This document shows positions 23,901 to 41,200 of a stretch of DNA of 64,000 bases, piece by piece (within the stretch, counting starts at the first letter, position 1; the number at the start of each line of letters is the position of its first letter). The notes under the pieces are model-generated. The model was not told the DNA's origin. It worked only from the letters and a program-made list of their open reading frames with translations, and did not search any database. A program made the position numbers and the translations under genes. Source of the stretch: Candidatus Omnitrophota bacterium. GTDB taxonomy: Bacteria > Omnitrophota > Gorgyraeia > Zapsychrales > Fredricksoniimonadaceae. The stretch is taken from the NCBI GenBank assembly GCA_903836515.1, contig CAILQW010000005.1, forward strand, positions 3,280 through 67,279. Direction: 5' to 3'.

Positions 23901-26900
23901 CATTACACTTATGTTTTCCGGGTGCGCGATGCCGGAGGAAAATGGGATGAAACTGCCGAGAAAGACCTTGCGCTCAACGTCTTGACCGATGCGGAAATGT
24001 CCCTGCGCGAACATCCCCTGCAGGGGGAGGTGCCGCAGGCCGTTACCCGTGCGGACCAGTATCGCGTGTTCTTGCAGGCGCTGGCGGGAGAAAATAACCT
24101 CAAAACACATAATATCTGGGTCAAGGGAGAAACGGTGGTGTTGAAGCCGGTGCATGCTGGTATCCGTCAGGTCAGGGTGCTTAAAGGCGGCGAACTTTTC
24201 ACCGAGGTCCCGGTGCTCGAATACCAGGGGGTGACCGCCCGCCAGCTTCTCGCTTCATCGGCGGGGGAGCAGGCGCTCCCCATGGAGATCATCCTTCCCG
24301 ACGGAGATTATGAACTCGATGTGATGACGGCTGCGGCGCAAGGGCCTGCACTGCCCGCCGGGGCGAATGTGGCGGCGTTGGCATCATCTTCTGCCGAGGC
24401 CGGGGCCGCGGCGGCATCGCGCTACAAGAAACCGCTGAAGGTCGGCGAAGATTACATGATGTTTGTGGCCATGGGGGACGGCAAGGCAGGGTATAACACC
24501 AATCGCGGCAACATTGAGCCGGTGCAGGGCAACGAGGCGTACAAGCCCGGTTTTTACAAGGAAGGCAAGCTGGCCTATTATCTCAAGGGCAAGGTCCAGG
24601 GGAAGTATGTTGTCACCTCAAGCTTTGATACCCAGCGCCTGGGCAAGCAGGCCCTGCGTACCTTCCGCGATGAGGATTATTATCCGGTTTACGGCGATGC
24701 CTCTACCGTCAATTATGACGCCACTGATACGCAAGGCCCGTTGTATCTGGCCGTCGATTGGGATAAGTCCCAGGCCATCTGGGGCAATTATGCCGTCGCT
24801 TTCAACGATAATGAATTCGCGAATTACACCCGTTCGCTCTACGGCGGGAAACTGGATTACAAGACGGTGGCCACGACAGATTACGGAGAGCCCAAGACCA
24901 ATATTGTGGTGTTCCATGCCGAAGTCCGCGAGCGCAGCGCTCATAATGAATTCCTGGCCACAGGTGGGTCCCTTTATTATCTTAAGTCCCAGGATGTGGT
25001 GAAGGGCACGGACAAAGTCAGGGTTGAGGTGCGTGATGCGGTCACAGGCCTGGTGAAATCCACGGTCGAGATGAAGAGCGGCGTGGATTACGAGATGGAC
25101 AATGCCAACGGACGCATGTTGTTCTGGCGGCCGGTGTCCATGTCCGTTGCGGGCACGGGCTTGATCAGTAACGGCCTGTTGAACGGGGACCCTGTTTATG
25201 TTGTGGCGGACTATGAGTATTTTACCAACGATACCATTGCCAACGCCACCAACGGCACCCGGGTGGCCCAGGCCCTAGGCAAGGATGTTGTCGTCGGGGG
25301 GACGTATGTGTCCGAGGCGCAGGCTGACCGCAATTATGAACTTAAAGGGACCGATGTGACCATGCACATGGGTAAGGATGCGACGGTCAAGGGCGAGTAT
25401 GCACAGAGCTTGTCGGCGGCTGGCGGGAACTACATTTCCTCCGATGGCGGTATCACTTTCAGCGAACTGTCCGTGGCGGACAATACGCAGGGGCAGGCTT
25501 ACGGGATCAGCCAGGATGCCCGGTTGTTCGATCGTGTCGGTCTCAAGAGTTACTACAAGTGGATCGGCGACGGCTTCTCGACGTCGGGGACAACGTCCCA
25601 GCAGGGTAAGGAAATGAAGGGCATGGCCATGACCTTTGACCTGACGCCGGTGACCCGTTTGACCGCCAGCCGCGATATCCAGCGGTTGATCACCCGCGGC
25701 AATCTTCAGACGGCCATGCAGGTCGGTGCCCAGGAAACAACCACCTCCATGGTGCAGATCGTGCAGGATGCCCGGCGCTTGAGGCTGAGTGCGGCCTTCC
25801 AGAGCACGCAGGTCAAGGCCAAGGATGATACCTATCAGTCGGGATCCAACCAGGAGGCCAACACCCTGGCGGTCAAGGCGGATTACGTGCTGAATGAAAA
25901 GACGGACCTGACCTTGAGCCATCAGGCGGATGTGGCCGGAGGTTCCAAGCAGACAACGACCGCCGGTGTGACACGCCGGTTATCCGACAGGCTGAGCGGG
26001 AGCCTGGAAGGGTCGGTGGGGACGGAGGGCCTGGCCACGAAAGCGGGCCTGAGCGCCAATGTAACGCCAAAACTCGCGCTCACCTCCGATTACACGGTCA
26101 CCAAAGTTCGCAATGGGGGCATTCAGCATACCGCCGCGCTCGGCGGGAAGGGGCAGATCAATGACAAGACATCGCTCCAGGCCACGGCAAGCGTGACGCA
26201 ATCGGCGGCTGGTGCCCAGGAGAATACCGTTGCCCTGGGCGGGACGACCAAGATGAGTACAGATACGGATGTCAAGATGGGCGTGGAATCGACCCAGTCG
26301 TCGGATGCCGCCAAATCCCGTCAGGCGCTGGCCCTGGAAGGCGCGCGCCAGGGCGCCGACGGGCATGCTACGACCGGCGGGGTGAAGATCCAGGATTCCC
26401 TGACCAGCGGCAAGCAGACGGTGATTAGCGCGGGTGAGGCGGGACAGATGACACCTGATTCCCGTATCGCGGCGGAACGTTCCTTTGCCTTTGGCACGAA
26501 CAGCCAGGAACAGGACAACACGTACAAGATCACGCGCACGCAGGACGGCCGGAACGTCGAGACATCCTATGCCCGCCGGCAGACGGCGGGTACGGCCGGC
26601 GTTTCCGATTCCAATATTTTCGGGCTTAGCGGGGATGTCAATGACCGGGTCGCGGTGCAGGCCAGCCTTGAAAAAGGCAAGGCGATGGATGTGGACGGGT
26701 CGATTTATGACCGTGTGGCCCTTTCCGGCGGGTTGGGTTATGTGGCCAAGGATCCGTCGACCGGCGAGGTTTCTTTCCAGAGCTCGACCAAGGGCGAAGT
26801 GCGTGTTGATACCGGGTCGACCGACCGGCAGCAGTATGTGCTCTATCAGTCCGCGGAAGGGAAACCCAACGACCAGAGCACGGTGCGTGTCAAGGTCTCG

Positions 26901-27839
26901 TATTCCACGACCCATAATTCAAACACCGGTAAAGCCGAGGCCGGTTACAAGGAAATCATGCTGGGCGGGGCTTACCGGCCGGTGGCCATGGACCGCCTGA
27001 ATGCGTTCGGGGAGTACACGTACAAGGAAAACCAGGGGCCTGCGGGCCAGACTACGGCCACCGATGTCACGGCTTCGAAAATGCATGTGGTGACGGCCGG
27101 TGCGGCCTATGAACTCAATGCCAGGTGGGATCTTGTCGAAAAACTCGCCATGCGGATCATGGAAGAGAAAGTCACCGGATTCGAGTTCACCAAGACGCAT
27201 ACCTGGCTCATGGTTCATCGCGTCAATTACGCGATAAACCAGGATTGGAAGATCGGGGCTGAATACAGGATGCTGACGGTCCAGGAAGCCAAGGACAAAA
27301 AGAGCGGCGTGCTTCTGGAGGCTGTGCACCATGTCAATGACAACGTGGAACTTGGGATCGGGTACAATTTCACTAATTTTGTCGATGACCTGACAAATCT
27401 CGGCTATACGGCCCAGGGGCCGTTCATGCGTATGACCGGGAAATTGTATGATCAGACGCCGCAGGAACGGGCCAGGGCCAAGGCCCGATGGCTTGACCGC
27501 CGTGTTGAACTTTATGCTGCAAGGATGGTCAAGAGGGAATTTGAACGTAAAGACAGTCAGATTGTGGCCGAACTCAACGAACGCTACAAGAGGGCCCGGA
27601 TAGCGGCAGAACTTGGTAAATATGATGAAGCGCAGCATATTTATAAGAACATTATCCAGGTGACCCGGATGATGTATGAAGAGGCGGCCCAGTTCGTCCG
27701 TCATCATATCGACTTTGAAGAACGGGTCTACAATGCCTTCCAGCGCGCGGAAGAGTACTATCATAAAGGGGAGTTATGGCAGGCCCGCAAATTGTGGGAA
27801 AAAATTGTGGAAGAAGCGTCAAAGGCTGTGCTAGAATAA
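17964..27839 (+). CDS. Giant surface/outer-membrane protein (3291 aa): PATR-like repeat passenger region, DUF11-like domain, Ser/Thr/Gly-rich beta-rich C-terminal region
   Basis: N-terminal signal/anchor (FLALGVVVLACVYAWASG) and 9.9 kb of uninterrupted ORF. About 3.5 tandem 350-aa repeats carry PATR-like GTxTLxGTS motifs. A DUF11-like stretch (KIGEVVTYTVTIENL...AVGDFAAGQ) and a long T/S/G/Q-rich region suggest a beta-barrel or fibre. Confidence 0.85.
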   Translation: MPTGKALLKVFTRIRTSFLALGVVVLACVYAWASGISIPDNSRLNVNSGELHLELALPGHVTNSGVIKTTTGKVRLNGDWNTLGTGYYDAGTGTVVFLASGGLETITPGSNVSDAFYNLTHAGAATLKVVTNALNIRGGFTNQAGIFDANGLTMNVGGDWANTSAAAPSFIPNGNIVHLNGADQQILGQTTFYEIDKQIYAGPSVQLTLPSGLAQTITHKLTLRGSSDVLLALRKGAGTDAAQLKLLSGGLQDIARVDVQDNDASGGLTLVARSSPDHAAPAYKTTNWAFGSVTVKWDGSDDTRWDNPYNWNLGIVPESGDTAIIRSVDEDNANAPIPHQPVLAHDVTVGVLQIRNGAGVDLAQHNMTVQGALTNAGTITLAGNETVTAASLADTGTFRYVGMTNGTLNAVISGNFIIGGTALSTYHALVVEEQNVSSQRDTFTIASDLSVTTDAVFTAGAVAVASGKKLSVGGGMTVNGATFDASMASVDTFGFVLSGGSFSAPGAAGIFTVSGDFTHSAGTFTPNDGTLTLDGTSTVAPSIQTLKGSTGFYSLVKTIPSGATQPHTLTFWSGDIFMVSRQLTMTGLDGSHRLNIDASTSGSAASLRLLTGGGQNIQNVAVRDNNALSGLLLVARGDSQDISNNTHWAFGAATLRWVGSVSDAWADPFNWDLGMVPIPNDTVVIRAEDEDNGNAPLLHQPLLSADVAVGSMNIRDAAASVTLNGHGLQVKNTAVPPGVFQNNGTVYLNGTETLDLAAFDTDSGTFAYRGDGAGGGPFNISGNGRPAAFFNLVIQPPPAGAASTFAANNDLTVNGALTVSGAALNAAGSSVAVVGSFTETGGTFTAPGSAKSFTIAGDFVHSAGVFNANGGTVTLNGTSSTAASSQLLGGNTTFYNLLKTVPAGAVQVHRLTFDHAATATVAHTLTLRGITGNALQIRSDSVDPAPAVRSAQLLLQTGGTQNIGFVDVQDSDASGGVTLLARDSDDHSNPSYNTTNWIFGIPTVTWTGVVSTDWADPLNWDLGLVPSSGDDALIRAAANQPHLTAASGAVSLRNLSLEGGTSLALDGYGLAITAVLSNSGSIVLRGSEPVAIHTPDTDSGTFVYTGADAGAPIILPAFDPAHAALIYFNLVIAATGAVDTFRPATDLVIHGGLTVNGGVLDAAGISMTLAGNLALNGGTLSAPGSGKTFTVGGDWARTLGVFTPDGGRVTLSGPATATMSGDTGFYDLATSVPVEGKTIHFTAGSDQTVAHTLDLNGNAAAKLVLRSSADGTPWTLTLPSGYQVVRNVDVRDAVAVVAGVRPYVLALDSIDQQNSGVSTNKGWLFAQLLIIAPAEGRTVDPDPTVIGRSVPSEAVSIMDKDGVVVATARADVNGNFRVVVGHDDAALGTVIRTSLATGANEIMPSFDGHNGTSAHVTVTAATTPVEVPVIVGPVDGTLLIEATPTITGQGKPGQTVVVVASDLRGQLLLTLPPEAYAGQGTVGADGLYAVTLTRPLVSGVNYVSVVVDGVSSRVLSYVIRDLQGVVFDATNNHLIKNASVSLIKPDGTLARPGTDLDAADVNPFVTGADGIYYFVKASGIFTFKVDAAGYDYPSQTPDDQMPAGRFVVKGSRGEEVSTVGLIMHIDQPLDANPHIFKVEKKANKAQAKIGEVVTYTVTIENLLTTPVAASANLVDKIPPGFKFMPGRAQLDGLPVPDPAGMRPLILAVGDFAAGQKKAARYQLVIGAGVAPGNYDNVAYMAYTNGRVVSNRASASVQLVLDPLFDAGTVFGKVFYDWNENGKQDAPDYVAEDREEVVESPVPNVRLVMEDGTVVTADKNGQFSIPALLPGRHLVRLDERSLPPGAYLTTDKVQVVDVTAGSIVKVNFGVNTGNSAPLGKDDTFFQNDLVVEQNAAANTPRLNVRTFNENILLHNDTVIEQVEFRMFTNYAAFLISWELEVRDRDTHKVVRSFTGTRQNIYDPVYWDGRDKAEKYIRQDRHYTYVFRVRDAGGKWDETAEKDLALNVLTDAEMSLREHPLQGEVPQAVTRADQYRVFLQALAGENNLKTHNIWVKGETVVLKPVHAGIRQVRVLKGGELFTEVPVLEYQGVTARQLLASSAGEQALPMEIILPDGDYELDVMTAAAQGPALPAGANVAALASSSAEAGAAAASRYKKPLKVGEDYMMFVAMGDGKAGYNTNRGNIEPVQGNEAYKPGFYKEGKLAYYLKGKVQGKYVVTSSFDTQRLGKQALRTFRDEDYYPVYGDASTVNYDATDTQGPLYLAVDWDKSQAIWGNYAVAFNDNEFANYTRSLYGGKLDYKTVATTDYGEPKTNIVVFHAEVRERSAHNEFLATGGSLYYLKSQDVVKGTDKVRVEVRDAVTGLVKSTVEMKSGVDYEMDNANGRMLFWRPVSMSVAGTGLISNGLLNGDPVYVVADYEYFTNDTIANATNGTRVAQALGKDVVVGGTYVSEAQADRNYELKGTDVTMHMGKDATVKGEYAQSLSAAGGNYISSDGGITFSELSVADNTQGQAYGISQDARLFDRVGLKSYYKWIGDGFSTSGTTSQQGKEMKGMAMTFDLTPVTRLTASRDIQRLITRGNLQTAMQVGAQETTTSMVQIVQDARRLRLSAAFQSTQVKAKDDTYQSGSNQEANTLAVKADYVLNEKTDLTLSHQADVAGGSKQTTTAGVTRRLSDRLSGSLEGSVGTEGLATKAGLSANVTPKLALTSDYTVTKVRNGGIQHTAALGGKGQINDKTSLQATASVTQSAAGAQENTVALGGTTKMSTDTDVKMGVESTQSSDAAKSRQALALEGARQGADGHATTGGVKIQDSLTSGKQTVISAGEAGQMTPDSRIAAERSFAFGTNSQEQDNTYKITRTQDGRNVETSYARRQTAGTAGVSDSNIFGLSGDVNDRVAVQASLEKGKAMDVDGSIYDRVALSGGLGYVAKDPSTGEVSFQSSTKGEVRVDTGSTDRQQYVLYQSAEGKPNDQSTVRVKVSYSTTHNSNTGKAEAGYKEIMLGGAYRPVAMDRLNAFGEYTYKENQGPAGQTTATDVTASKMHVVTAGAAYELNARWDLVEKLAMRIMEEKVTGFEFTKTHTWLMVHRVNYAINQDWKIGAEYRMLTVQEAKDKKSGVLLEAVHHVNDNVELGIGYNFTNFVDDLTNLGYTAQGPFMRMTGKLYDQTPQERARAKARWLDRRVELYAARMVKREFERKDSQIVAELNERYKRARIAAELGKYDEAQHIYKNIIQVTRMMYEEAAQFVRHHIDFEERVYNAFQRAEEYYHKGELWQARKLWEKIVEEASKAVLE
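18190..21900 (+). repeat. About 3.5 tandem divergent repeats (period about 1.05-1.08 kb) inside the giant gene
   Basis: Recurring blocks: LxLRG...AQLxLLxGGxQxIxxVDVQDxDASGGLTLVAR...TNWAFGxxTVxWxGxxxxxWxDPxNWxLGxVPxxxDTxxIR at nt 18620-19040, 19710-20130, 20730-21150, with a partial copy at about 21715-21890. FTAPGxxKxFTVxGDFxHSAGxFxxNGGTxTLxGTS recurs at about 19470, 20490 and 21500. Confidence 0.6.
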
Positions 27840-27912: not shown

Positions 27913-30900
27913 ATGAAAAGATACCATCAGGTATTTCCTGCCGCTTTTGTCCTGGTCTTTCTGGGGTGTGCGCAAGCCTGCGCCCAGGGTGCCGGGGACG
28001 CGCCGCCATCCGTATTTAAAGAGGACAAGGGCCCTGCCGATTATGTCTATGACCTCAAGCTTCTCATCAAGAAATCCAAAGATAATATCAGGGTTGTGAA
28101 CGAAAAGATCAAGGAACAGGCCGTCATCAAGCGCAACCAGCAGCGCGAAGACAAGGCCCGGGAATATTATCAGCAAGCCATGAAACTCCAGGAAGAAGGG
28201 CGCCTGGAAGAAGCCCGCCAGTTGTTTGACAAGGCCATCCGGATCACCGAACATCCCGAAATGAAATATTATATAAAGGAAAGCGCGCGCCGTTCCAAGC
28301 TTCAGGCCACCGCGCTGGAACGTGAACAGGAAGACCTTCAGCGGGAGCAGACCGGGGAACAGAAGGCCCTGTTGGAGCGTGCGGCCGGCAGTTATGATAC
28401 GGCGGTGACCCTTTACAAACAACAGAAGTTCCGTGAAGCCCGGGACGAGTTCCAGTCCGTTGAGGAAATGTACCCCGATTACAAGGCGGTTCGCAGCTAT
28501 CTCCAGGTCGTTGAACAGGATATCATCCAGTCTGAACATCTGCAGGCGAAAGAACAAAAGAAAGAGATCGAACGCCAGCAGAAAGAGATGGAGATTTCCC
28601 GCCTGCGCGAAAAGGAGTTGTGGCGCAAGGAGATTGAAAAGAAGGAGGAGGGCCGTCAGGAGGAGCTGCGCAAGCAGGCGCAGGGCATTTACGATGAGGC
28701 TCTCCGGTTGTACGGCGATCATAAATATACCGAGGCCCGCGACAAATTCCAGGAACTGGAATGGGTTGTGCCGGATTTCAAGGCCACGCGGGCGTATCTG
28801 GGCCGTGTCGAGGCCGATATCCATAATGAGAAGAAAAAGATATCGCATCAGCGCCAGGAAGAAGTCGAAAAACAACACTGGCAGGATGTTCTGGGTGAAA
28901 AGAAGACGGCCGACGACCGCCGCAAGGCCATGGAAGCCCGTGAACAGGAAAAACTTGCTGCGGTCAAGGACCAGGCCGAGTTTGTCTATCTTGCGGCCGT
29001 AGCTCTCTTTGAAAAACAGCTTTTGGCCCAGTCAAAGGAAAAATTTGACGAGGTGGAGGGCATTTATCCCAATTACAAAGTCACGCGCGATTATCTTAAG
29101 CGCATTGCGGATTTCTTTCATATCCAGGAAGAGCGCGAGACGCTCAAGCAAAAAGCGGCGGATGAACGCCATATCTGGGAGCAGGAGCTGGAGCGCCGCA
29201 AGGCGGAAAAAGAGAAATTCAAGCAGTTATCCATGGAAGCTGATGCCGCCTACAATGAAGCGGTGCGGCTTTACAAGACCGGACGGTTGATCGAAGCCAA
29301 GGAAAAATTCATCGAAGTCGATCAGCGTGTGCCAGATTACAAGTCTACGCGTGTTTACCTGAAACGGGTGGATGAGGATATTGAACTGATGGTCAAGACC
29401 CAGCGCCATCAGGAGGTTCTGGATGCCGAGCGCGAAGAAGTGGAGAAGATGCGCGCCACACGCGACAAGGCCGAGGCCGTATACAACGAAGGCATCGCGG
29501 CTTACGATGCCAAGGATTTTGTCACAGCCAGGGCCAAGTTCGAGGCCTGTGAGGACATTTTCCCGGATTTCAAGAAGACAAAATATTTCCTGGCCCGTAT
29601 CAGTGAAGATGCCCGGGCAGCGGAAGAAACCAGAACACATCAGGCTATGGAGCGTGAAGCTTCCGGGTTTTATGCCCAGGCGCTCACTTTTTATCAGGCC
29701 GGGCAGTTTGAAGAGGCCAAAAAGAAGTTCATGGCTGTTGAGGCCGTGGTTACGGATTTCAAGCAGACCAGCACGTACCTCGATCGTATCGACGATGATA
29801 TCCTGCGCAAGAAAGAGGCGGACCTGGCGCGGATGAAAGAGCAGCGCGCGCAGGGGGTCTATGACCAGGCCATGGCCCTTTATCGGGGCGGCGAACTTGC
29901 CGAGGCCAAGGAGAAATTCCTTGAGGTGGAAGTTGTTTATCCTGGCTACAAGGAAACAACGCATATCCTCGAGACAGTTGATGCCGATATCGAAAAACAG
30001 AAAAAAGAAGCCGCCCTGCGTCAGCAGACGGATGCCGCCGAGAAATTATACGTCCAGGCTGTTGAGTTGTACCGCACCGGCGATTATGCGGCGGCCAAAG
30101 AGCTTTTTATCAAGACCGAGGTCGTATTTCCCGAGTACAAGGACTGCCTGAAATATTTATCGCGCATCGATGCGGACATCGCGCGCCGCAGGAAAGAAGA
30201 GTTTGTGCGTTCTCAGGCGGCGCAGGCCGATCCGCTCTATGCCCAGGCACTTGCCTTATACAAGGAATCTGATTTCATTGAAGCCAGGAACAAGTTCATG
30301 GAACTTCAGGGGGTTATCCCCGGGTACAAGGAAACCGAGTTATATTTAAAACGCATCGAGAAGGATATCCGGGACCAGCAGGAGCGGGCGGTCGCCGCGG
30401 AAAAGGCGCGCAAGGCGGATGGGCTTTACGCGGATGCGGTAAAACTCTACACGTCCCGTCAGTTTGAACAGGCCAAAGCCAGGTTCATAGAGCTGACCAC
30501 CGTCGATCCTTCTTACCGCAATGTCCGCACGTATCTCTCCCGCATTGACAGTGATATCCGTGATGAGGCGGTGCGTCAGGCCCGCGAACATGTTGAAGAA
30601 CAGGCCGCGGCGCCTTATGCGCAGGCCGTCACGCTCTACCATGAGTCTAAGTTTGAAGAGGCCAAAATCAAATTCAGGGAAGTTTTCCTGATCGCTTCGG
30701 ATTACAAGAAGACCAAGGCGTATCTGGCCCGCCTTGACGGGGATATCCAGGCCGCCCGGCAAGCCCGTGACAAAGAGCGTTTGTCCAGGGCAGAAGCGCT
30801 TTATAAGGATGGCGCAGTTCTGATGGATGGCGGGCGCCTGATTGAAGCGTTCATGAAATTCAGCGATCTGGAACAGGTCTATCCGGATTACAAGGCAGTA

Positions 30901-33273
30901 CGTTCCAATCTTGTGAAATTGCGCCGGCTGGCTGTGGAAAAGGACATCGAACTCCCGGATGCGCCGCCTTCGGCTGCCCTTGAGGCGGAGGATTCGGCCG
31001 AGCATGCCATGGCAGACCTTTATCAGGAAGGCCTGCAGTATTATAAAGACAAGAAATACGATGAAGCCCAGGCCAAGTTTGAGGCGGTGGGGGCATCGAA
31101 GTCCGATTATCGTTCGACCAGGATTTACCTTGACCGTATCAAGGCGTTGAAGGCGGCGGTGCCGGGGGCGCCTGCTGTTGCGGCGGCGCCAGCCGCTGTT
31201 GTTCCGGCGGTAGTTTCCCATGAGCTTCCGCAGGAAAATGATAAAGCCCTGGCGGTCCTTGCCACCCGTTCCGGCAAGCTTTACCGGCAGATCAAATCCC
31301 TGTCGGAAGACAAGGAATTGTCGTCCACGGCCAGGACGTTCGCGAAAGTGGACCGGCTGATCGAAGACCTCCAGACAGAGCGCCGTCGTATCGCGGAAGA
31401 TGCTTTTCATCAAAAGAAGGCCGAAGAACAGGCGTCTGTGCGCAAGCAACGCAGGGATGAGGAGGCTTCACGGCGTGAGGCACAGAAGAAGGCCAGGATC
31501 GCGTCGGTACAAGCCGCCGCTTCAAAAATCCGCAGCACTGGGCGTAAAGCCAGCCCCGCGATCGATCTGCACGAGGAGGAACAGCGTCAGATCCGTATCA
31601 AGGCTGAAGAGATCTATCAGCAAGGCGTGAGGCTCTGGCGTGAGAAGAATTACGAGGCTTCCCGTGAGCGCTTTGAGGCACTGACAAAACTTTTACCGGA
31701 TTATAAGGATACAGGGCTGTACGTGGCCCGGATCGAACGTCTTAAGGACGATGAAGCGCTCCGTCGTGAAGAATCCGTGGACCGCGATGCCATTCAGGCG
31801 CTGGCGGCTAAAGCTACTGCCGTGAATGTGGAGGTGCTTGAGCTGTCACGCAAAAAGCAGTATGCCGCCGTTGAGACGCGTTTCAATGACCTGGAGGCGA
31901 TTTTAAAAGAGATCCAGGCGGTCAAGACGCGCATCGAGACCCGCCGGCAGCGCTATGAATCGCCATGGGACAAGAAGCCCGCCGCGCATCAGGCCGGACC
32001 TGCCGGGGCTGTTTTCAATGAGGCCGAGCAGGCTTACGCGGTCCAGGATTATGCGCATGCGCGTGAAAAATTTGTTGAGGCCGTTCAGATCGATCCTTCC
32101 TGCAAGAAGGCCGCCGCGGCCTACATTGCCAGGATTGACCGTATTCTTGCCCGGCGCGATTTCGAGTCGCGCGAGGCCCAGAAGAAGATCGAGGACAGGG
32201 TGGTGGCACTGCAGGGTGGGGCCCAGACCAAAAATGAGATTGTCATCAAGCGTGCCGTCAAGGTATCCAACGAAGGCAAGAGCCTTTACAGGATCGGGCG
32301 TTACCGGGAGGCCCGTATCAAGTTTGAGGAATTGGCCGATATCGGATCTCCTGCCGAAAAACGTACGGCCCAGCGGTATCTGGAACTTATCATGGCCGCT
32401 CTTGACAAAGAAAAACACATGAGTGAGGCACAGCGCCGTAGCGCGCAGGAGCGTTCTTTCGAGCAACAACACCTGAAGGCTCAGGCCGGGCTGGAACAGG
32501 ACAAGCGCAGCCAGGCGCGTGAGCTGGACAAGACCAAGGCGATTACGGCCGACCAGCGGCTGCTGGATATCCGCCGTGAACAGGGCTTAAAGGCGATCGA
32601 GGACCAGAACGCGCTGCAGCGCGGCAGTGCGGGCAGACGCTCTATAGCAGATGAAAAGAAAAAGATCGCGCTGGAGAAGGCTGTCGCCCAGAAAAAGGCG
32701 CGGGATGAATCCAGTGCGTTGACCCGCAAGCTGGAGGAGGCGCGCGCGAGGGACCGCAAAGATCGCGAAGAGCAGGATATGCTCAGGCGCAACAGGGCCG
32801 CGGTGCAGTCGATCCTCAAGGGATCGGAATTGGCGGATGCGCGTGGTGTTGTCATGACCCCGGCGCCTGCCGCGGTGGAGTTGCCGTCGGCCGGGATCCC
32901 GCCTGAAGATCCTTCGACGCTCCTGCTCAAGCAGACAGCGGCCCGGGAAAAGCGCCGCCTGGAAGAACAGCGTACCGCTATCCGGAAGGAATTTGAAGAA
33001 GGGGTCGAGCGTTTTTATAATGAGGCGGTTGATCTTTATAAGAAGAAAAATTATGAAGAAGCGCTGGAGGGGTTCGCGCAGGTCGACGGGCTGATCAAGG
33101 GCTATAAAAAGACGGACCAGTATCTGGAAGACTCCAGGCGCGCCTTGGGCCGGGGAAGGCCCGTGCAAGTGCCGCAACGACCCCTACTGCCTGCCGGCCA
33201 GGACCGGATGCGGTCTGTTACGTCTACGCTGGACGCGTTCGATCAGCGCACATCCCCGATCGCGGTGCACTGA
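27913..33273 (+). CDS. Large repetitive lipoprotein (1786 aa) of about 16-20 charged helical repeats
   Basis: Signal plus lipobox (VLVFLGCAQA). Repeat unit YxxAxxLYxxxxFxEAxxKFxEVExxxPDYKxTxxYLxRIxxDI recurs with 190-300-nt spacing, separated by E/K/R/Q-rich spacers. Long antisense ORFs here are shadows. Confidence 0.8.
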   Translation: MKRYHQVFPAAFVLVFLGCAQACAQGAGDAPPSVFKEDKGPADYVYDLKLLIKKSKDNIRVVNEKIKEQAVIKRNQQREDKAREYYQQAMKLQEEGRLEEARQLFDKAIRITEHPEMKYYIKESARRSKLQATALEREQEDLQREQTGEQKALLERAAGSYDTAVTLYKQQKFREARDEFQSVEEMYPDYKAVRSYLQVVEQDIIQSEHLQAKEQKKEIERQQKEMEISRLREKELWRKEIEKKEEGRQEELRKQAQGIYDEALRLYGDHKYTEARDKFQELEWVVPDFKATRAYLGRVEADIHNEKKKISHQRQEEVEKQHWQDVLGEKKTADDRRKAMEAREQEKLAAVKDQAEFVYLAAVALFEKQLLAQSKEKFDEVEGIYPNYKVTRDYLKRIADFFHIQEERETLKQKAADERHIWEQELERRKAEKEKFKQLSMEADAAYNEAVRLYKTGRLIEAKEKFIEVDQRVPDYKSTRVYLKRVDEDIELMVKTQRHQEVLDAEREEVEKMRATRDKAEAVYNEGIAAYDAKDFVTARAKFEACEDIFPDFKKTKYFLARISEDARAAEETRTHQAMEREASGFYAQALTFYQAGQFEEAKKKFMAVEAVVTDFKQTSTYLDRIDDDILRKKEADLARMKEQRAQGVYDQAMALYRGGELAEAKEKFLEVEVVYPGYKETTHILETVDADIEKQKKEAALRQQTDAAEKLYVQAVELYRTGDYAAAKELFIKTEVVFPEYKDCLKYLSRIDADIARRRKEEFVRSQAAQADPLYAQALALYKESDFIEARNKFMELQGVIPGYKETELYLKRIEKDIRDQQERAVAAEKARKADGLYADAVKLYTSRQFEQAKARFIELTTVDPSYRNVRTYLSRIDSDIRDEAVRQAREHVEEQAAAPYAQAVTLYHESKFEEAKIKFREVFLIASDYKKTKAYLARLDGDIQAARQARDKERLSRAEALYKDGAVLMDGGRLIEAFMKFSDLEQVYPDYKAVRSNLVKLRRLAVEKDIELPDAPPSAALEAEDSAEHAMADLYQEGLQYYKDKKYDEAQAKFEAVGASKSDYRSTRIYLDRIKALKAAVPGAPAVAAAPAAVVPAVVSHELPQENDKALAVLATRSGKLYRQIKSLSEDKELSSTARTFAKVDRLIEDLQTERRRIAEDAFHQKKAEEQASVRKQRRDEEASRREAQKKARIASVQAAASKIRSTGRKASPAIDLHEEEQRQIRIKAEEIYQQGVRLWREKNYEASRERFEALTKLLPDYKDTGLYVARIERLKDDEALRREESVDRDAIQALAAKATAVNVEVLELSRKKQYAAVETRFNDLEAILKEIQAVKTRIETRRQRYESPWDKKPAAHQAGPAGAVFNEAEQAYAVQDYAHAREKFVEAVQIDPSCKKAAAAYIARIDRILARRDFESREAQKKIEDRVVALQGGAQTKNEIVIKRAVKVSNEGKSLYRIGRYREARIKFEELADIGSPAEKRTAQRYLELIMAALDKEKHMSEAQRRSAQERSFEQQHLKAQAGLEQDKRSQARELDKTKAITADQRLLDIRREQGLKAIEDQNALQRGSAGRRSIADEKKKIALEKAVAQKKARDESSALTRKLEEARARDRKDREEQDMLRRNRAAVQSILKGSELADARGVVMTPAPAAVELPSAGIPPEDPSTLLLKQTAAREKRRLEEQRTAIRKEFEEGVERFYNEAVDLYKKKNYEEALEGFAQVDGLIKGYKKTDQYLEDSRRALGRGRPVQVPQRPLLPAGQDRMRSVTSTLDAFDQRTSPIAVH
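28370..33150 (+). repeat. Tandem degenerate repeats (period about 190-300 nt) encoding the PDYK-x-T-x-x-YL-x-RI module
   Basis: PDYK/PDFK/PNYK/PGYK...YL..RI(D/E)xDI hits at about 28480, 28775, 29075, 29335, 29570, 29760, 29945, 30135, 30320, 30510, 30700, 30890, 31100, 31700, 32100 and 33110. Confidence 0.6.
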
Positions 33274-33351
33274 AGGATATATTGAATTGTTGTCTTGAAG
33301 TCGATGGCGGCAAGATTTAACCCGCATTTTTCAATAGAAAGAGGCTGGAAG

Positions 33352-35112
33352 ATGAAGTTTTTTAAAATAGTGTTCTTTGGTGTTGTGGCCCTGGTGGTTC
33401 TTTTGATCGCCGGTCTTTATATTTTCTTTAAGACCTTTGATCTTAACCAGCATGTGCCCCAGATCACCCGCCAGATTTCCCTGACCCTTGGCCGTGATTT
33501 CAAGGTCGGGGGCGCGCAGATGGGTTTTTCTTTCGTGCATGGTATCGGGCTTCAGATCAGGGGTATTACGCTGGCCGATGACACCAGGTTCTCGGACAAG
33601 CCTTTTTTGACACTTGACCATATTGAGGTCGGGTTGAATGTCAACGCTTTCCTGTTCGAGCGCAGGATCCAGGTGACCGATGTGGTTATGGTTGCGCCCA
33701 GGATTGTGATCATCCGTTCAAGCAGCGGGACGATCAATGCCGCAGGGATCGGGGCTCAACCGTCGCCTGCCGCGACAGTACAGGCTTCTTCATCCGCCGG
33801 AGAGAAGGCGCTTCCCGCCGCCCTGCTTTCCCTTTTGGTCAAGGATGTGAAGATCACGGATGCGGATATTACTTACATTGACAGGATGATGTCTCCGGAG
33901 CTGGTGTTGTGGGTGAGTCATATCGATGCCCAGCTCAAGGATCTTTCTTTCGTGCGGCCTTTTCATGTGACGCTCAAGGCCGCCGTTTTCGCTGTTGAAC
34001 AAAATATGACGGTTGATGCGGACCTGGCGTTGGACATGGCCCAGCAAGCCGTACGGCTGACGGGGCTGAAGGTGGCGGCAGACCTGGCAAAGATCGATCT
34101 CGCGCTCCTTAAACAGGATGTGCCCATGATCGGCCCTGCGGGGTTGAAAAAACTTGATGGGACCGTTACTTTTTCCGTGGCCGATGCGCTGGCCGGGGCC
34201 GCGGGGCTTACGGCCCTTAAAGCCCGGATTCTTCTTGAGAAAGGGGAGGTCCTTACCACCCTTCTGGGAGTGCCCGCAGGGAATATCATGCTCAAGGCGG
34301 ATATGGATGAAAAGAAGATCGATGTTGGGAGTCTTGAATGTACTATCGCGGGCGGCACGCTGAAGGGGACAGCTTCGATCGCAGGTTATCTGACCGAGCC
34401 CTCGATCTCAACGGTTTTCAAGCTCGACACGGTGGATGTGAAGAAGCTCCTGGGGGGCTACAAGCTGCCTGTGAAAATAAGCGGGAATCTTTCGGCGTCC
34501 GGGAGCGCAACGTTTCAGGGCAAAACGCCGGAAAGTATCCTGGCTTCCCTGAAGGGGGATGCCCAGGGAGAACTCAAGAACGGCCAGCTTGACAATGTGA
34601 ATCTTTTGGCCCTGGGGCTGGAAAAAATCCCCATGCTTCCCGGTCTTCTGGATAGTATCCTGCCGGGGCTTTCCGCAGACACCCAGCAGGATGTGCGCCA
34701 GGGGATAACGCGTTTTGATACCTGTCGTGCGCAGGCAACAATGGCCGCCGGGGTGATCCAGGTTGCCGCCGCCGATATTGCGACCCGGGATCTGACCGTT
34801 CACGGGCAGGGCACAGTCAACATGTCCGGGCCCCTGGATTTCAAGGGGGAGATTCGTATGGCGAAGGCGGTGTCGGATGTGTTGGTGGCCAAGGCAGGGG
34901 ATCTGTCTGCCTTGCGGGATGAGCAGTCCCGGATCTATATGCCCCTGAGCATAAGCGGAACTTTGCTGAAGCCGCGGTTTATCCCGGATGTGGACTATTT
35001 GACAAGGAAGATAATCGCAAGCCAGGGGAGTGAACAGCTTAAGCAGGTCCTGGGGACTCCGGAAGCTTCACAGGCCGTTAACGCTGTCCTGGATCTTTTC
35101 AAGAAGAAGTAA
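33352..35112 (+). CDS. AsmA-family outer-membrane assembly protein
   Basis: Start at MKFFKIVFFGVVALVVLLIAGLYIFF (N-terminal TM anchor), followed by long beta-rich sequence with AsmA/DUF748-like features (GxxTxxG repeats, C-terminal GGTLKG...). Confidence 0.7.
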   Translation: MKFFKIVFFGVVALVVLLIAGLYIFFKTFDLNQHVPQITRQISLTLGRDFKVGGAQMGFSFVHGIGLQIRGITLADDTRFSDKPFLTLDHIEVGLNVNAFLFERRIQVTDVVMVAPRIVIIRSSSGTINAAGIGAQPSPAATVQASSSAGEKALPAALLSLLVKDVKITDADITYIDRMMSPELVLWVSHIDAQLKDLSFVRPFHVTLKAAVFAVEQNMTVDADLALDMAQQAVRLTGLKVAADLAKIDLALLKQDVPMIGPAGLKKLDGTVTFSVADALAGAAGLTALKARILLEKGEVLTTLLGVPAGNIMLKADMDEKKIDVGSLECTIAGGTLKGTASIAGYLTEPSISTVFKLDTVDVKKLLGGYKLPVKISGNLSASGSATFQGKTPESILASLKGDAQGELKNGQLDNVNLLALGLEKIPMLPGLLDSILPGLSADTQQDVRQGITRFDTCRAQATMAAGVIQVAAADIATRDLTVHGQGTVNMSGPLDFKGEIRMAKAVSDVLVAKAGDLSALRDEQSRIYMPLSISGTLLKPRFIPDVDYLTRKIIASQGSEQLKQVLGTPEASQAVNAVLDLFKKK

Positions 35113-35200
35113 TCTTTTTGCCCGCCGGAGAGGGCGCAGATTTTTCGGGAATAGGGCATCGGCCGCATTCTGGATGAATTTCGCTTGTGTTTGCCCGACG

Positions 35201-35228
35201 GCAAAGGTATACTATAAAAAATTTAGAA
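35201..35228 (+). promoter_or_regulatory. Candidate sigma70-like promoter: TTGCCC, 16-nt spacer, TATAAA
   Basis: ttgccc (35201-35206), 16-nt spacer, tataaa (35223-35228), about 45 nt upstream of the ATG at 35271. Confidence 0.3.
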
Positions 35229-35270
35229 ATCGTGGCAGGGTATCTGAATCAGGAAGGGACAGGCGGGGTT

Positions 35271-35984
35271 ATGGCAGATTCCAAAAAGAACAACAAAATC
35301 CGAATCATACTTTTGATCCTCATGGGGGGGTTGACGCTCTATACCCTTGTGATCTGGTTTTTCAATTATCGTACGCTGCAGCAGACCGTGACCACCATCG
35401 AGACGACGGCACAGGAACAGTCCGTTAATTTCCGTTATTATGTTCAGGAATACCGTTCCGCCAAGACAGCGCTGGATACGGCCAACCAGAAGGTCGCGGA
35501 ATTGACGGCGGAACTGGCAGCGGCCAATGCGGAATTGGCGTCCACACGGACTGAATTGTCTTCGCTCCAGGGGATGAATGATGATCTTAAGGGGACGATC
35601 CTGTCTCTGGAACATTACAAGGTGAAGGCGCATGCCAAGGGCGAGGCGCTGGAGTCGATGATCAATGCCTTCAGGAAGAAGAACAAACAGCTCGACGCAG
35701 ATCTCCAGGTTGTCCGCAGGGAGCTGGCCGTATTCCAGCCGGATATCTCGGATGTTACCGAAGGCAAATCCAAGATCCTTCTTTTCAGGAATCACATTAG
35801 GCTTGTGAAAAAGAACATGCATGTTCTCAAGGAGCAGGCATTATCCATGAAGATCGCGGCACAGCAACAGCATGACCGGCTTGAAATGCTTTACGGCAAC
35901 AATGGATATATGGTCAAGGATGGCCAGGATCAATCCATCAAACGCCAGGGGGCGAAGGTGGATATCAAAGTCGAATTCAAATGA
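35271..35984 (+). CDS. Membrane-anchored coiled-coil hypothetical protein
   Basis: MADSKKNNK followed by a TM helix (IRIILLILMGGLTLYTLVIWFF), then heptad-like coiled-coil sequence (AELTAELAAANAELASTRTELSSLQ). No homology recognised. Confidence 0.55.
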   Translation: MADSKKNNKIRIILLILMGGLTLYTLVIWFFNYRTLQQTVTTIETTAQEQSVNFRYYVQEYRSAKTALDTANQKVAELTAELAAANAELASTRTELSSLQGMNDDLKGTILSLEHYKVKAHAKGEALESMINAFRKKNKQLDADLQVVRRELAVFQPDISDVTEGKSKILLFRNHIRLVKKNMHVLKEQALSMKIAAQQQHDRLEMLYGNNGYMVKDGQDQSIKRQGAKVDIKVEFK

Positions 35985-38265: not shown

Positions 38266-41200
38266 ATGAAAGAGACAGCACAATCATATTTGCGCCAGGA
38301 CGGGACATTTGTTATCGAGGATTTTAACCGCAGGGCGCCTTTCGCGAATTTTTTTCCGGGAATCGCCGGTGCCTGGGGTATTCCGATGTGGGTGTTCACC
38401 ACCAACCGCGGCCAGGGTATTGCCTCTTTCGGGATTGAGTCGAAGGACAAGGCGATCATGGAGTTCCAGCCTGCCAACAAGGCCTACCGGTTGACGGGGA
38501 CGCATGGATTTCGCACCTTCCTCAAGGTCAAGCGGGGCACAGCCGTCAAATTTTACGAGCCCTTCCGCGCCGATGCGGGCACGCCTTTTAAAATCCGCCA
38601 GTCGATGATGATCACCTCCCACGACCTGACGATCGAGGAAGTCAACCAGACGCTGGGGGTGGCGGTCACGGTCAATTATTTCACCATGCCCGAAGAGCCT
38701 TTTGCCGCCCTTGTCCGCATGGTGACGGTCAGGAATCTCTCCAAAGCGGCGATGTCCCTTGAGATGATCGACGGCCTGCCGGTCATTATCCCTTTCGGGC
38801 AGAACGACTGGGTCATGAAGCACATGTGCCGCACCATTGAGGCCTGGTACAAGGTGCGCAACCTTCACAAGCGCGCGCCCTATTTTCAGCTCGACGTCGA
38901 GGCCGCCGACGTGCCGCAGGTCAACCATATCAAGGAAGGCAATTTCTATTTTGCGTTTGATCCCAAGGCCAAGCCGGGGGTCCTGCTGACGCCTTGTGTC
39001 GAGGCTGCTGCGGTGTTCGGACAGGCGACCGACTTCACTGTGCCGGAATGCTTCATAGCGGCGAAGAATTACAAGGTCCCCGTGCTTCAGCAGACAGATA
39101 ACCGCACCCCGTGTGCCATGGCGCACACGACCTTCCCGCTGCGGGCCGGTGCGTCGAAAGATGTGATCAGCCTCACCGGTTTTGCGCGCAGTGTCGATGA
39201 GCTCAATGCGAATGTCAAAAAGGCCACGGCGTCAGGTTTCGTGGAGCGCAAGCGCGCGGGCAACCGGGCCCTGGTGGAGGGGGTCAAGTCCCTGGCATTC
39301 ACGCACAGCGCGCACAACGCGTTTAATGCGTACGCCGGACAGACCTTTCTGGACAATGTGATGCGCGGCGGGCTTCCGGTAAGCCTCAAGACGAGTGCGG
39401 GTCCGGCGGTGTTCAACGTTTACAGCCGTAAACACGGCGACATGGAGCGCGACTATAATTTCTTCAAACTGTCCCCAACCTTCCTTTCCCAGGGGAACGG
39501 CAATTACCGCGATGTGAACCAGAACCGCCGCAACGACGTGTGGTTTAATCCGGACCTGAAGGACAGCGCTGTGGTCAATTTCTTTTCGCTCACACGGGCG
39601 GACGGGTACAACCCTCTGATCGTCTGCGGCATGGCCTTCACGCCTGAAGATGACGGCAGGATCAATGACCTTCTGGGGGCGTGTGTCAAATCCGGGGACG
39701 TGACCGCCCTGGCGACATTCCTGAAGAAGGGGTTTATGCCCGGGGACCTGTTCAATTTTATGGCGGATCATGATATCCGCCTGAAGGTGACGCCCCGTGC
39801 TTTCCTGGCGCGTGTGTTAAGCGAATGCCGCAAGTCGGAAACAGCCCAGCACGGGGAGGGTTTCTGGACGGATCACTGGACGTACAACCTCGACCTGCTG
39901 GAAAGTTATTTGTCGCTTTATCCGGAAAATCTCAACGCGATCTTTCTGGGCAACAAAAATTTCGGTTTTTATCATAACGGCGTTTACGTTCAGCCGCGCG
40001 ATAAGCGTTATGTGCTGACAGCCCGCGGTGTGCGCCAGTATCACTCCTTGCATGAGGCTCACGAGGATAAAAATAACACCCTGCGTGTTTCTCACGGGGC
40101 GGGCGAGGTGTACCGCACCAGCCTTCTGGTGAAGATGCTTTGCCTTGTCGCCAACAAGGCCGCCACCCTCGATCCCAGCGGGATCGGGATTGAGATGGAA
40201 GCTAACAAACCCAACTGGTACGATTCGTTAAACGGGCTGCCAGGCCTGCTGGGGTCGTCCATTTCCGAAACATTCGAACTGAAACGTGCCGCCGCGTTTG
40301 TTCTGGCGGCCTTCGACCGGCTTGCCCTTGACGGCGACGCCTCGGTCCTGGTATTTGAAGAGCTTGCGGATTTTTGCGAGGGGCTGGGAGGCCTGTTGGC
40401 GCAGGAACACAGCGATCTTCACTATTGGGACAAATCCAACACCCTGAAGGAAGCTTACCGGGTCAGGATACGCCAGGGCATTTCCGGGGGGGAAAAAGAA
40501 GTTTCTTTTGCCTTCCTGCGCCGGCTCCTGGAAGCGGTGGTCGTGAAGGCGGACAGGGCGGTGGCCAAGGCCGCGCGTCCCGACGGCCTTTTTGCCACCT
40601 ATTATGTCCATGAGGTGGTCCGCCATGAAATGATCGATGGGGTATCGCCCGCCAAAGAAGGCCCGCATGTCAGGCCGCTTGCCTTTAAACGTCATGACCT
40701 GCCGCTTTTTCTGGAAGGGTTCGTGCACGCCCTGCGCAGTGAGCCGGATGCGGCCCGCGCGCGGGAGCTTTACCGTCAGGTGCGCAAGAGCCCCCTGTTC
40801 GATCGTGCCCTGGGCATGTATAAATTGAACACCAATATTACGGCGGAGAGCGAGGAGATCGGGCGCACACGGGTTTTCCCGCGCGGCTGGCTTGAGAACG
40901 AATCTATCTGGCTGCACATGGAATACAAGTACCTGCTGGAGCTGCTGCGCCGGGGGCTGTTTGAAGAGTTTTACCAGGATCTCGCGACCTGTTGTGTGCC
41001 CTTCATGGATCCCTCGCGGTATGGCCGCAGTATCCTCGAGAATTCTTCATTCATTGTGTCCAGCGCGCATACGGACCCTAACCTGCACGGCCAGGGATGT
41101 GTGGCCCGCCTTTCGGGCAGTACCGCTGAATTCACGCATATGTGGATGCTGATGAGCGCGGGTCTTTCGCCTTTTACCGTCAGCCAGGGCGGCGCGCTTG

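Follow-up and report, generated by a model that had tools for sequence, protein, structure and literature searches.

A long helical protein with isolated TPR hairpins, encoded between a giant predicted barrel protein and an AsmA-family protein in Omnitrophota

The gene trio in the window

The window analysed here is the whole of a 64,000-nucleotide stretch of DNA from a Candidatus Omnitrophota bacterium (assembly GCA_903836515.1, contig CAILQW010000005.1, positions 3,280 to 67,279 of the forward strand). It contains the gene of a long repeat protein, which is preceded by the gene of a giant protein and followed by an AsmA-family gene. These neighbours had already been named in a first-pass annotation made from the sequence alone, and the scans agree with it: the open reading frame (ORF) upstream encodes 3291 amino acids (aa) and the one downstream matches the AsmA family (PF05170). 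A protein 100% identical to the repeat ORF is present on nine metagenome contigs. By motif, the repeat protein belongs to the tetratricopeptide repeat (TPR) class, but by architecture it is not a classical TPR array.

The features of the three genes are summarized in Table 1. The intergenic gaps in the cluster are short; no terminator-like hairpin was found in the two intergenic gaps of the window, and one lies immediately past the AsmA gene. The cluster is flanked by housekeeping genes (DnaE, HisS, AspS, PhoH, RecO, a Hel308-type helicase, RsmE and the glycine-cleavage genes GcvT/P), indicating that the trio is located on the core chromosome and not in an accessory island.

Table 1. Positions in the window of the repeat gene, its neighbours and the features of their products
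Feature	Positions	Strand	Basis or remark
Upstream giant gene, 3291 aa	17964..27839	+	signal peptide, N-terminal passenger, predicted beta-barrel region, helical tail
Predicted beta-barrel region of the giant, about aa 2427-3161	25242..27446	+	about 45 consecutive beta-strands (AlphaFold2)
Helical tail of the giant, aa 3162-3291, about 125-130 aa	27447..27836	+	four helices, two TPR-like hairpins
Repeat-protein ORF, 1786 aa	27913..33273	+	ATG to stop; identical to database protein P0001
Signal peptide, aa 1-25, MKRYHQVFPAAFVLVFLGC AQACA/QG (slash, cleavage site)	27913..27987	+	read from the sequence
N-terminal amphipathic helix YVYDLKxLIxKSKxNIKxVNEKIKEQAV, running into helix A of module 1	28033..28203	+	best-conserved part of the family; invariant columns cluster here
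Conserved core, modules 1-4	28156..29130	+	spacing by unit HMM, alignment
Signature ITEHPEM, in place of the PDYK loop in module 1	28243..28263	+	alignment of seven diverse orthologues
Central array of eight modules, aa 520-1011, strict 62-63-aa period	29470..30945	+	regular expression and unit HMM; AlphaFold2
Pro/Ala-rich hinge AAVPGAPAVAAAPAAVVPAVVSHE, probably non-helical	31153..31224	+	composition profile; separates the N-terminal rod from the C-terminal half
Modules 15-17, aa 1231-1282, 1364-1415 and 1445-1496	31603..32400	+	unit HMM
Last module, aa 1698-1749	33004..33159	+	kept at the C-terminal end of most full-length homologues
C-terminal peptide SVTSTLDAFD	33214..33243	+	C-terminal listing of 85 homologues; family consensus R.dAVSkALDlFDpnak
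AsmA-family gene, 586 aa, N-terminal transmembrane helix	33352..35112	+	PF05170, PF13116; database gene call
AsmA C-terminal motif AVNAVLDLFKKK	35074..35109	+	kept in the AsmA orthologues of the lineage

Repeat modules and TPR motifs

A regular expression recovered 17 copies of the module, and a hidden Markov model (HMM) built from the units recovered 18, each with an E-value between 6e-14 and 2e-23. According to the unit HMM, modules 1-9 start at aa 86, 161, 260, 359, 447, 524, 587, 650 and 713, and modules 10-18 at aa 776, 839, 902, 964, 1037, 1235, 1368, about 1449 and 1702. The spacing from unit to unit is 75, 99, 99, 88 and 77 aa, then six times 63 aa and once 62 aa, and it is irregular afterwards. 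The computed consensus is Ae..Y.qAv.LY..g.yeEAreKF.Eve.v..PDYK..Tr.YL.RId.DI; it matches the motif of the first-pass annotation, which had estimated 16-20 copies of a periodic helical module. When the unit HMM was run against all six-frame ORFs of the window, it matched the repeat ORF alone. The mean pairwise identity among units is 31%, and no DNA-level tandem repeat was found in the repeat gene, indicating that the repeats are old and have not recently expanded. The protein is rich in charged residues (37.6% D/E/K/R) and contains 13.5% Ala.

In the Pfam/NCBIfam scan of the repeat protein, TPR_2 (PF07719) alone passes its cutoff, with 94.6 bits (cutoff 27; E 8.4e-28) and six separately significant stretches. 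This model scores independently, and the same spacing is seen again in dozens of orthologues, so that our own HMM has not created the periodicity. The TPR motif occupies the first 34 aa of every module, and the TPR positions A8, L11/Y12, A20, F24, V27 and P33 are kept. Classical proteins of this class have 3-16 adjacent 34-aa motifs stacked with a ligand groove. In the repeat protein, however, the motifs are nowhere adjacent: a charged helix of 29-65 aa lies between them, and they are spaced 62-99 aa or more apart and never 34, so that at least three adjacent motifs with a 34-aa period, forming a superhelix with a concave groove, are not found. No match to Sel1-like repeats (PF08238, 36-44 aa) was obtained at E<=1 in the Pfam scan. 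The first-pass annotation had held the module to be unlike both TPR arrays and Sel1 repeats, and this stands for the arrangement and for Sel1, but not for the motif itself, which is TPR_2 above the Pfam threshold.

The conserved positions of the module are the core-packing positions of a TPR (A8, L11/Y12, A20, F24, V27), together with the PDYK loop. This conservation suggests a structural role rather than ligand binding.

The sequence of the whole repeat protein has no match in the PDB, and the unit profile matches only designed pentatricopeptide repeat (PPR)/TPR proteins, plus a weak hit to the YbgF structure 2xev (E 0.002). Several other families match the repeat protein below their cutoffs: LcrH/SycD (TIGR02552; 55.9 bits vs 104.8, with no single stretch significant), BamD (TIGR03302; 40 bits vs 81.4), YfiO (PF13525; 18 bits vs 25) and CpoB/YbgF (TIGR02795; 13.4 bits vs 90.1), with Mul1B far under threshold too. 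The matches to LcrH/SycD, BamD, YbgF and Mul1B each span about one hairpin.

Like BamD, LcrH/SycD and pilotin-type TPR proteins, which hold clients, the repeat protein might be a dedicated periplasmic chaperone or assembly factor, whose TPR units hold unfolded segments of the 3291-aa giant between the Sec translocon and the outer membrane. Its gene adjoins that of the giant and is probably co-transcribed with it, its best NCBIfam matches (LcrH/SycD and BamD, with a weak Pfam YfiO hit) are to families of this kind, and a very long client might require a very long holdase. However, these matches are far under the curated cutoffs and cover about one hairpin each. A peptide-binding groove needs contiguous arrays of at least three TPRs, and isolated hairpins form no concave groove. 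Moreover, the conserved positions are the core-packing ones, and the number of modules varies from 6 to 22 among family members while the size of the client is nearly constant. We consider the chaperone explanation rather unlikely. BamD/YfiO and LcrH/SycD share with the repeat protein a weak single-hairpin similarity and a linkage to an outer-membrane protein, but they are compact domains of 3-5 TPRs and 150-250 aa, and BamD (about 240 aa with 5 TPRs) is a true lipoprotein while most members of the repeat family are not.

CpoB/YbgF is also periplasmic and combines helical or coiled-coil segments with TPR motifs. However, the repeat protein is 4-9 times longer and is located outside a tol-pal operon, with the giant gene and AsmA as neighbours instead of tolQRAB-pal. 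The JGI name “TolA-binding protein”, carried by several homologues, is an over-annotation in view of the TIGR02795 score and of the missing tol-pal context.

Structure model of the proposed N-terminal rod

AlphaFold2 was run on aa 28-720 with an alignment of 38 family members, a range that ends before the hinge and the C-terminal half. The mean predicted local distance difference test score (pLDDT) is 82; it rises to 88-96 over the 63-aa units but is as low as 47-68 in the 99-aa units, along their long linkers. The model consists of helices only, in a fixed order: a long helix (38-76 residues), a 3-residue turn, a 14-residue helix, the 6-residue PDYK loop and the next long helix. In the central array (pLDDT 88-96), the long helix measures 40 aa. 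The helix A of each TPR is the C-terminal end of a long helix whose start, “T..YL.RI..DI”, caps the preceding hairpin and then passes through the charged linker. The antiparallel helix pair capped by the next helix, which is typical of TPR_2 proteins, is therefore present in the model (pLDDT up to 96); the difference is that the capping helix runs on as helix A of the next unit.

The N-terminal helix is modelled as one helix of 47 residues (aa 48-94; pLDDT 78-91), and its hydrophobic residues between aa 44 and 73 are spaced by 3-4 in a heptad-like manner, as judged by eye. The conserved core carries the linker motifs ARLREKELWRKE and LEKQxW, and its long helices have 47, 55, 76 and 76 residues. 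Between and around modules 15-17 there are degenerate conserved segments without PDYK (LYRQIKSLSEDKELS... and NVEVLELSRKKQY...), which are present in homologues too.

Foldseek against the PDB returned local TPR matches only (SPY, OGT, P58IPK and designed CTPR; E 5e-5 to 1e-3, probability 1.0), and no solved structure with the same overall architecture was found. The global fit of the model to TPR structures is poor, with a TM-score of 0.07-0.11 and a root-mean-square deviation of 31-77 A, indicating a far greater extension than in any TPR superhelix.

In the core array, each linker has 15 aa, contains neither Pro nor Gly, and is 47-60% charged and 7-20% hydrophobic. In a test for ER/K single alpha-helices, the linkers are 47-60% charged and 7-24% hydrophobic, and i/i+4 pairs of opposite charge are not clearly above those of shuffled sequences. 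In the model, the spacer is a charged continuation of a single helix, and the “coiled-coil spacers” of the first-pass annotation find no support in these hydrophobic-poor linkers, whose 15-aa versions do not show the 3-4 spacing seen by eye in the N-terminal helix. As estimated from the helix lengths, aa 28-720 would extend over about 58 nm, the four-module core over about 32 nm and each 63-aa unit over about 4 nm, where the long helices are assumed to be roughly collinear with an overlap of about 13 residues per joint, so that these values derive from helix lengths and not from coordinates.

In spectrin-type rods and in the “helical string” of three-helix bundles of Staphylococcus Ebh, neighbouring bundles share a helix, the last of one running on as the first of the next, and the length of the single-chain rod scales with the number of repeats. 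The repeat protein shares this building principle and is most like these rods in its workings. No relationship in sequence or fold was detected, however: Spectrin, FIVAR and GA gave no Pfam match in the repeat protein, and its local fold is TPR-like. Moreover, it differs from these rods in the short helix B (14 aa), in the unsupported charged helix between bundles and in its proposed periplasmic setting.

Family and distribution

A word-indexed search found 85 relatives of 980-2300 aa, and all informative source names among them are Candidatus Omnitrophota or Omnitrophica. As to function, they are called “hypothetical”, “tetratricopeptide repeat protein” or “TolA-binding protein”, and PF07719 is precomputed on nearly all of them. 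When the N-terminal core was used as a profile in an exhaustive search of 1.84 billion representatives, 196 clusters were obtained at E<=1e-30 and 448 clusters at E<=1e-10. In a scan of one genome per GTDB species, 35 loci were found, which are 38-76% identical to the query. The gene order is the same in all of these 35 loci that have enough sequence.

Twenty of the 35 loci are labelled Omnitrophota or Omnitrophica (Ca. Zapsychrus included), twelve “uncultured Planctomycetales”, and one each Elusimicrobia, Lysobacterales and Ca. Elulimicrobium. The odd labels (L013, L016, L039 and the twelve “uncultured Planctomycetales” loci) conflict with the Omnitrophota-type synteny and the 39-76% identity of these loci. 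They are probably placeholder names or binning errors, and all 35 loci were treated as one lineage. As far as the sequence comparisons go, the family occurs essentially only in metagenome-assembled genomes of Omnitrophota.

The number of modules per member is 6-22. Generally, the beginning of the protein is the most constant part: the first four modules are spaced 75-78, 89-99 and 98-103 aa apart in most of the 85 homologues, and the invariant columns fall mostly in the N-terminal 110 aa or so. The strict 63-aa array, on the other hand, is confined to the clade of the window (P0001-P0022). Six of the seven residues of ITEHPEM are invariant across seven diverse orthologues, the Pro being replaced by Leu in one, and the peptide is specific enough to pull the family out of 185,579 species genomes. 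The C-terminal peptide motif is found in most full-length members.

A recent internal duplication of about 290 aa was observed in P0002 (2205 aa; L001 10001-16618), where the segment “...AIAKLSERSSAIYQQIRSLSEEKELSD...”, one module and “NVEILQLSQNKDY” are repeated in the middle of the protein, indicating that length change by segmental duplication is ongoing.

Export signal

Homologues with complete N-termini have a signal peptide. In the window, the N-terminus reads MKRYHQVFPAAFVLVFLGCAQACA/QG, in which Cys19 stands in F-L-G-C and fits the loose lipobox pattern only. Five residues past this Cys there is a signal-peptidase-I site of the A-C-A/Q type (cut after Ala24), which is aligned with the A-x-A sites of the homologues. 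The cleavage sites of the homologues are of the AQAYA/Q, VSA/D and AFS/Q types, frequently without Cys, and those of most members are of the A-x-A type. Among 53 complete N-termini, the strict lipobox ([LVI][ASTVI][GAS]C at the end of the signal peptide) occurs in two and the loose one in six more. The lipoprotein assignment of the first-pass annotation is therefore not a property of the family. Judged by its N-termini, the family is Sec-exported and not generally lipidated, and cleavage is probably made by signal peptidase I.

Giant barrel protein and its helical tail

The repeat gene and the giant gene stay together. Among 42 related loci compared by tblastn, of which 7 were reached through homologous proteins and 35 come from species-representative genomes, the C-terminal region of the giant lies directly upstream of the repeat gene in 40, and the other two have little or no upstream sequence. 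The co-occurrence with the giant gene in related genomes, proposed as a check in the first-pass annotation, is thus observed. In six orthologous contigs, the upstream gene encodes 2973-3438 aa with matches to DUF11/CLIPPER, Big_6 and CarboxypepD_reg, and an AsmA/DUF748 gene follows downstream. In the light of this synteny, a partnership of the repeat protein with the giant gene is well supported.

The passenger of the giant carries repeats of about 300 aa and immunoglobulin-like (Ig-like)/DUF11 domains. The C-terminal region of the giant was modelled by AlphaFold2 with a pLDDT of 67 overall and of 70-88 over most of the sheet and the tail. Compared with the PDB by Foldseek, the sheet region is closest to LptD and Deinococcus SlpA (E about 7e-8, TM 0.14-0.19). 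For the C-terminal 1091 aa of the giant, 825 relatives were found, among them proteins of about 1200 aa under Deltaproteobacteria or Gammaproteobacteria labels, with PF13505 (OMP_b-brl) or with the name “outer membrane beta-barrel protein”. According to the model and these relatives, the C-terminal region is an outer-membrane beta-barrel, belonging to a widespread and apparently uncharacterised family of very large outer-membrane barrels. The “giant surface protein” of the first-pass annotation should rather be called a giant beta-barrel protein of the outer membrane that bears a passenger at its N-terminus. In one metagenome contig of another lineage (L044 1534-11663), a passenger-like protein (2126 aa; SdrD_B/CshA/OmpA) and a barrel protein (1220 aa) are encoded by separate adjoining genes.

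Behind the barrel, the giant carries a helical tail, with modelled helices at aa 3166-3194, 3199-3216, 3220-3267 and 3271-3288 (pLDDT about 80-88). It ends about 3 residues past a helix B, and its last hairpin is without a capping helix. The tail is kept in all 41 loci examined, with IYKDII.AGQMMFEEA..YIR as the best-conserved stretch. Barrel relatives with non-Omnitrophota labels or domain sets stop at about aa 3160 of the giant (...GPFMRMTGKLY), without a tail, and three barrel relatives of other lineages, which lack the tail too, have no repeat gene and no AsmA gene beside them. From the above, the tail, the repeat protein and the linkage to AsmA appear together in one lineage. The tail was also considered as a substitute for a periplasmic OmpA domain of relatives in other phyla, but these end at the barrel and their OmpA domains are not C-terminal, so that this idea was rejected.

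The last strand of an outer-membrane barrel ends on the periplasmic side, and the tail should therefore be periplasmic. In the models, the tail shares a similar helical grammar with the module, and we do not claim homology between the two. There is a loose resemblance between the mature repeat protein at its N-terminus (PADYVYDLKLLIKKSKDNI) and the PDYK loop and capping helix of a module, and a split module, completed between the tail of the giant and this N-terminus, is possible. From the signal peptides of the homologues and the periplasm-facing tail, a periplasmic location of the repeat protein is plausible.

The alternative is an extracellular location, in which the repeat protein, after Sec export, would cross the outer membrane, perhaps through the giant barrel itself, and form a surface coat as a charged fibrous layer or as adhesive fibrils on these very small and possibly host-attached cells. 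The barrel is very large, with about 45 predicted strands, and the repeat protein is highly charged and elongated. Omnitrophota have also been discussed as attaching to other cells and as carrying surface coats, though for different and much larger proteins (PMC10066038). However, no secretion-system genes or known secretion signals were found in the cluster, and no type III secretion genes in the window. The periplasm-facing tail and the AsmA neighbour both point to the periplasm, and the C-terminal motif of the repeat protein resembles that of AsmA, a periplasmic bridge protein. Moreover, two papers on giant proteins of Omnitrophota (ORFs >20 kb) mention neither this cluster nor TPR/AsmA partners. 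A surface coat is quite unlikely on this evidence.

At the level of the system, Deinococcus SlpA, OmpM-type proteins and Braun's lipoprotein offer the nearest analogy, where a large barrel is joined to a long helical element under the outer membrane. SlpA has its stalk, a trimeric coiled coil ending in a peptidoglycan-binding SLH domain, at the N-terminus of the barrel chain itself, whereas the helical element here is a separate protein of 1786 aa without a recognisable peptidoglycan-binding domain.

AsmA and the shared C-terminal motif

AsmA is found downstream wherever the downstream DNA of the 42 related loci suffices. In the window, the AsmA neighbour scores 82.8 bits for PF05170 (cutoff 29.8) and 70.1 bits for PF13116 (cutoff 46), and its N-terminus is MKFFKIVFFGVVALVVLLIAGLYIF. 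The mechanical ORF starts from TTG at 33295, but the ATG at 33352 is the likelier start, given the database call and where the transmembrane helix lies.

The C-termini of the repeat protein and of AsmA are alike. AsmA orthologues of the lineage end in AVsAIFDLFKKK, vLiENVLDaIFK or similar sequences. A joint regular expression was run over the C-terminal 22 residues of every ORF of 150 aa or more in the window and the loci, 427 ORFs in all. It matches 35 of them, all repeat-protein or AsmA orthologues; it was written after both families had been seen, so that its specificity is suggestive and not a formal test. Distant AsmA relatives end in amphipathic L.KGLFG+, and E. coli AsmA ends in VKKLLEKM, which has no LD.F motif but is amphipathic in a loosely similar way. 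AsmA proteins may in general have an amphipathic C-terminus, imitated by the repeat protein in the version of this lineage.

The repeat protein could accordingly serve AsmA first. As TamB works with TamA, an AsmA-like lipid-transfer bridge might be positioned or stabilised at the giant barrel by the repeat protein as an accessory scaffold, and the giant would be a docking platform only. The conserved place of AsmA downstream in the lineage fits this explanation, as does the amphipathic C-terminal motif, which is common to both proteins, occurs in no other ORF of 47 loci and has its counterpart in the L.KGLFG-type amphipathic helix at the end of AsmA relatives elsewhere. But AsmA-family proteins of other bacteria are without such a partner, the shared motif is missing from some members, and a DsbH-like thioredoxin gene or small ORFs intervene in some lineages. 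The repeat gene is linked more tightly to the giant gene than to AsmA. We regard an AsmA scaffold as unlikely.

The intervening DsbH-like thioredoxin gene (PF03190; 683-745 aa) was observed between the repeat gene and AsmA at L004 14102-16339, L005 12939-14990 and L006 14017-16224. It is not present in the window, and a small ORF takes this place in some other lineages.

A proposed periplasmic strut

The explanation that we favour, and to which we give about an even chance, is that the repeat protein is a Sec-exported, almost entirely alpha-helical structural protein of the periplasm, a strut with TPR joints and docking ends, with the tail of the giant as the likeliest partner and with AsmA possibly sharing a receptor. 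In the model, each module is one TPR hairpin (helix A, a 3-residue turn and the 14-residue helix B), followed by the PDYK loop. The hairpin is capped by the first turns of the next long helix, which continues via the charged linker into the next helix A. The TPR motifs would then serve as joints or “knuckles”, giving stiffness and direction to the row of long helices, with no peptide-binding groove. Both conserved ends are candidate docking sites, that is, the heptad-like N-terminal helix with the ITEHPEM module and the C-terminal AVSkALDlFD peptide. The giant barrel protein would be the likeliest partner, since its putatively periplasmic tail has the same helical grammar and exists only where the repeat protein exists, and the AsmA-like protein is a candidate second partner, which may share a receptor through its similar C-terminal motif. 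As a strut, tether or scaffold in the periplasm, the repeat protein may connect or organise the giant barrel protein under the outer membrane.

Several observations weigh against this explanation. Fully extended, the N-terminal 693 aa would measure about 58 nm and exceed the usual width of the periplasm (20-30 nm), so that a simple perpendicular spacer does not fit. Of the first-pass proposal of a periplasmic scaffold or spacer of the giant, the partnership and a plausible periplasmic location remain, and the simple spacer does not. The number of modules (6-22) and the length (more than 2-fold) vary across lineages while the giant is constant at about 3000-3400 aa, which argues against a strict ruler. 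Taken together, the excess length and its variation suggest a lateral scaffold, or that only the constant core of about 32 nm spans the gap. The orientation of the modules and the rod shape are uncertain, as the predicted template modelling score (pTM) is 0.30 and the linkers of the 99-aa units have a pLDDT of only 47-68. The likeness of tail and module is one of helical layout, for the unit HMM gives no match to the tail of the giant at E<1 and the tail matches TPR_2 at E 0.82. At the other end, the joint C-terminal expression was designed after the fact, and five close homologues (P0002, P0003, P0005, P0006 and P0016) stop a few residues past the last module, without the linker and the C-terminal motif, indicating that the motif is dispensable in some members.

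A wider form of the strut explanation would be an envelope skeleton of a hitherto undescribed kind, specific to Omnitrophota, in which the repeat protein is a spectrin-like single-chain strut of TPR knuckles acting with the giant and AsmA. The N-terminal helix of the repeat protein would complete, or coil with, the uncapped hairpin of the tail of the giant, and its AsmA-like C-terminal peptide would occupy the receptor of AsmA. The struts, fixed to the outer membrane at specific positions, would lie along the underside of the outer membrane as a lattice or tether, over tens of nm to more than 100 nm in cells of about 200-300 nm. Such a skeleton would supplement or replace the Lpp/Pal/OmpA/OmpM-type tethers of other two-membrane bacteria. 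We consider this wider form rather improbable.

Omnitrophota are widespread, ultra-small and uncultured, and their cell envelope is essentially unstudied. What is defined here is a gene trio conserved across the lineage, which consists of a tailed giant barrel protein, a helical rod protein of 980-2300 aa and AsmA. The public names of the rod protein are “hypothetical”, “TPR repeat protein” or, wrongly, “TolA-binding protein”. If it is a structural strut or tether, the trio would be a new solution for holding and organising the outer membrane, and the protein would be a natural case of TPR hairpins used as rigid joints, which is relevant to repeat-protein design. Moreover, the C-terminal motif shared with AsmA provides a testable handle on the docking of AsmA-type bridges in the phylum. 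If the protein is merely a generic TPR protein, the value would be limited to a correction of its annotation.

Genes around the trio

Farther downstream in the six orthologous contigs there are a PilZ or coiled-coil gene, YgjP, YqeY, a polysaccharide deacetylase and a protein of about 1088 aa. In the window, the gene after AsmA encodes a coiled-coil protein (35187-35984). In other lineages, a PilZ (cyclic di-GMP-binding) domain stands before the coiled-coil gene or is fused to it (L003 18160-18564 and L007 18569-19795), which hints that the function of the cluster is regulated.

These neighbours bring another group of systems into consideration, the synthase-dependent export of exopolysaccharides, in which the repeat protein would be the TPR scaffold, like BcsC, PgaA, PelB or AlgK with AlgE, and lead a polymer to the outer-membrane barrel. 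A periplasmic TPR protein is combined with an outer-membrane barrel in these systems as in the trio, a PilZ gene is found behind AsmA in several orthologous loci, and some 4 kb downstream there is a PgaB-like polysaccharide deacetylase. However, there is no glycosyltransferase or synthase in the cluster and no PilZ gene in the window, the housekeeping genes YgjP and YqeY separate the deacetylase from the cluster, and the conserved neighbour of 1089 aa is GH149-like and apparently cytoplasmic. Moreover, the known systems have contiguous TPR superhelices, often fused to the barrel, within a synthase operon, and neither was found here. A role in exopolysaccharide export is highly improbable.

The 1089-aa gene (38266-41535 in the window) is syntenic across the lineage and has no Pfam match and no evident signal peptide; its NCBIfam match to GH149 beta-1,3-glucan phosphorylase is below threshold (110.8 bits vs cutoff 1150). 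On the other side of the trio, an ORF of 902 aa (11568-14276) lies between recO and the Hel308-type helicase gene, with no Pfam or NCBIfam match.

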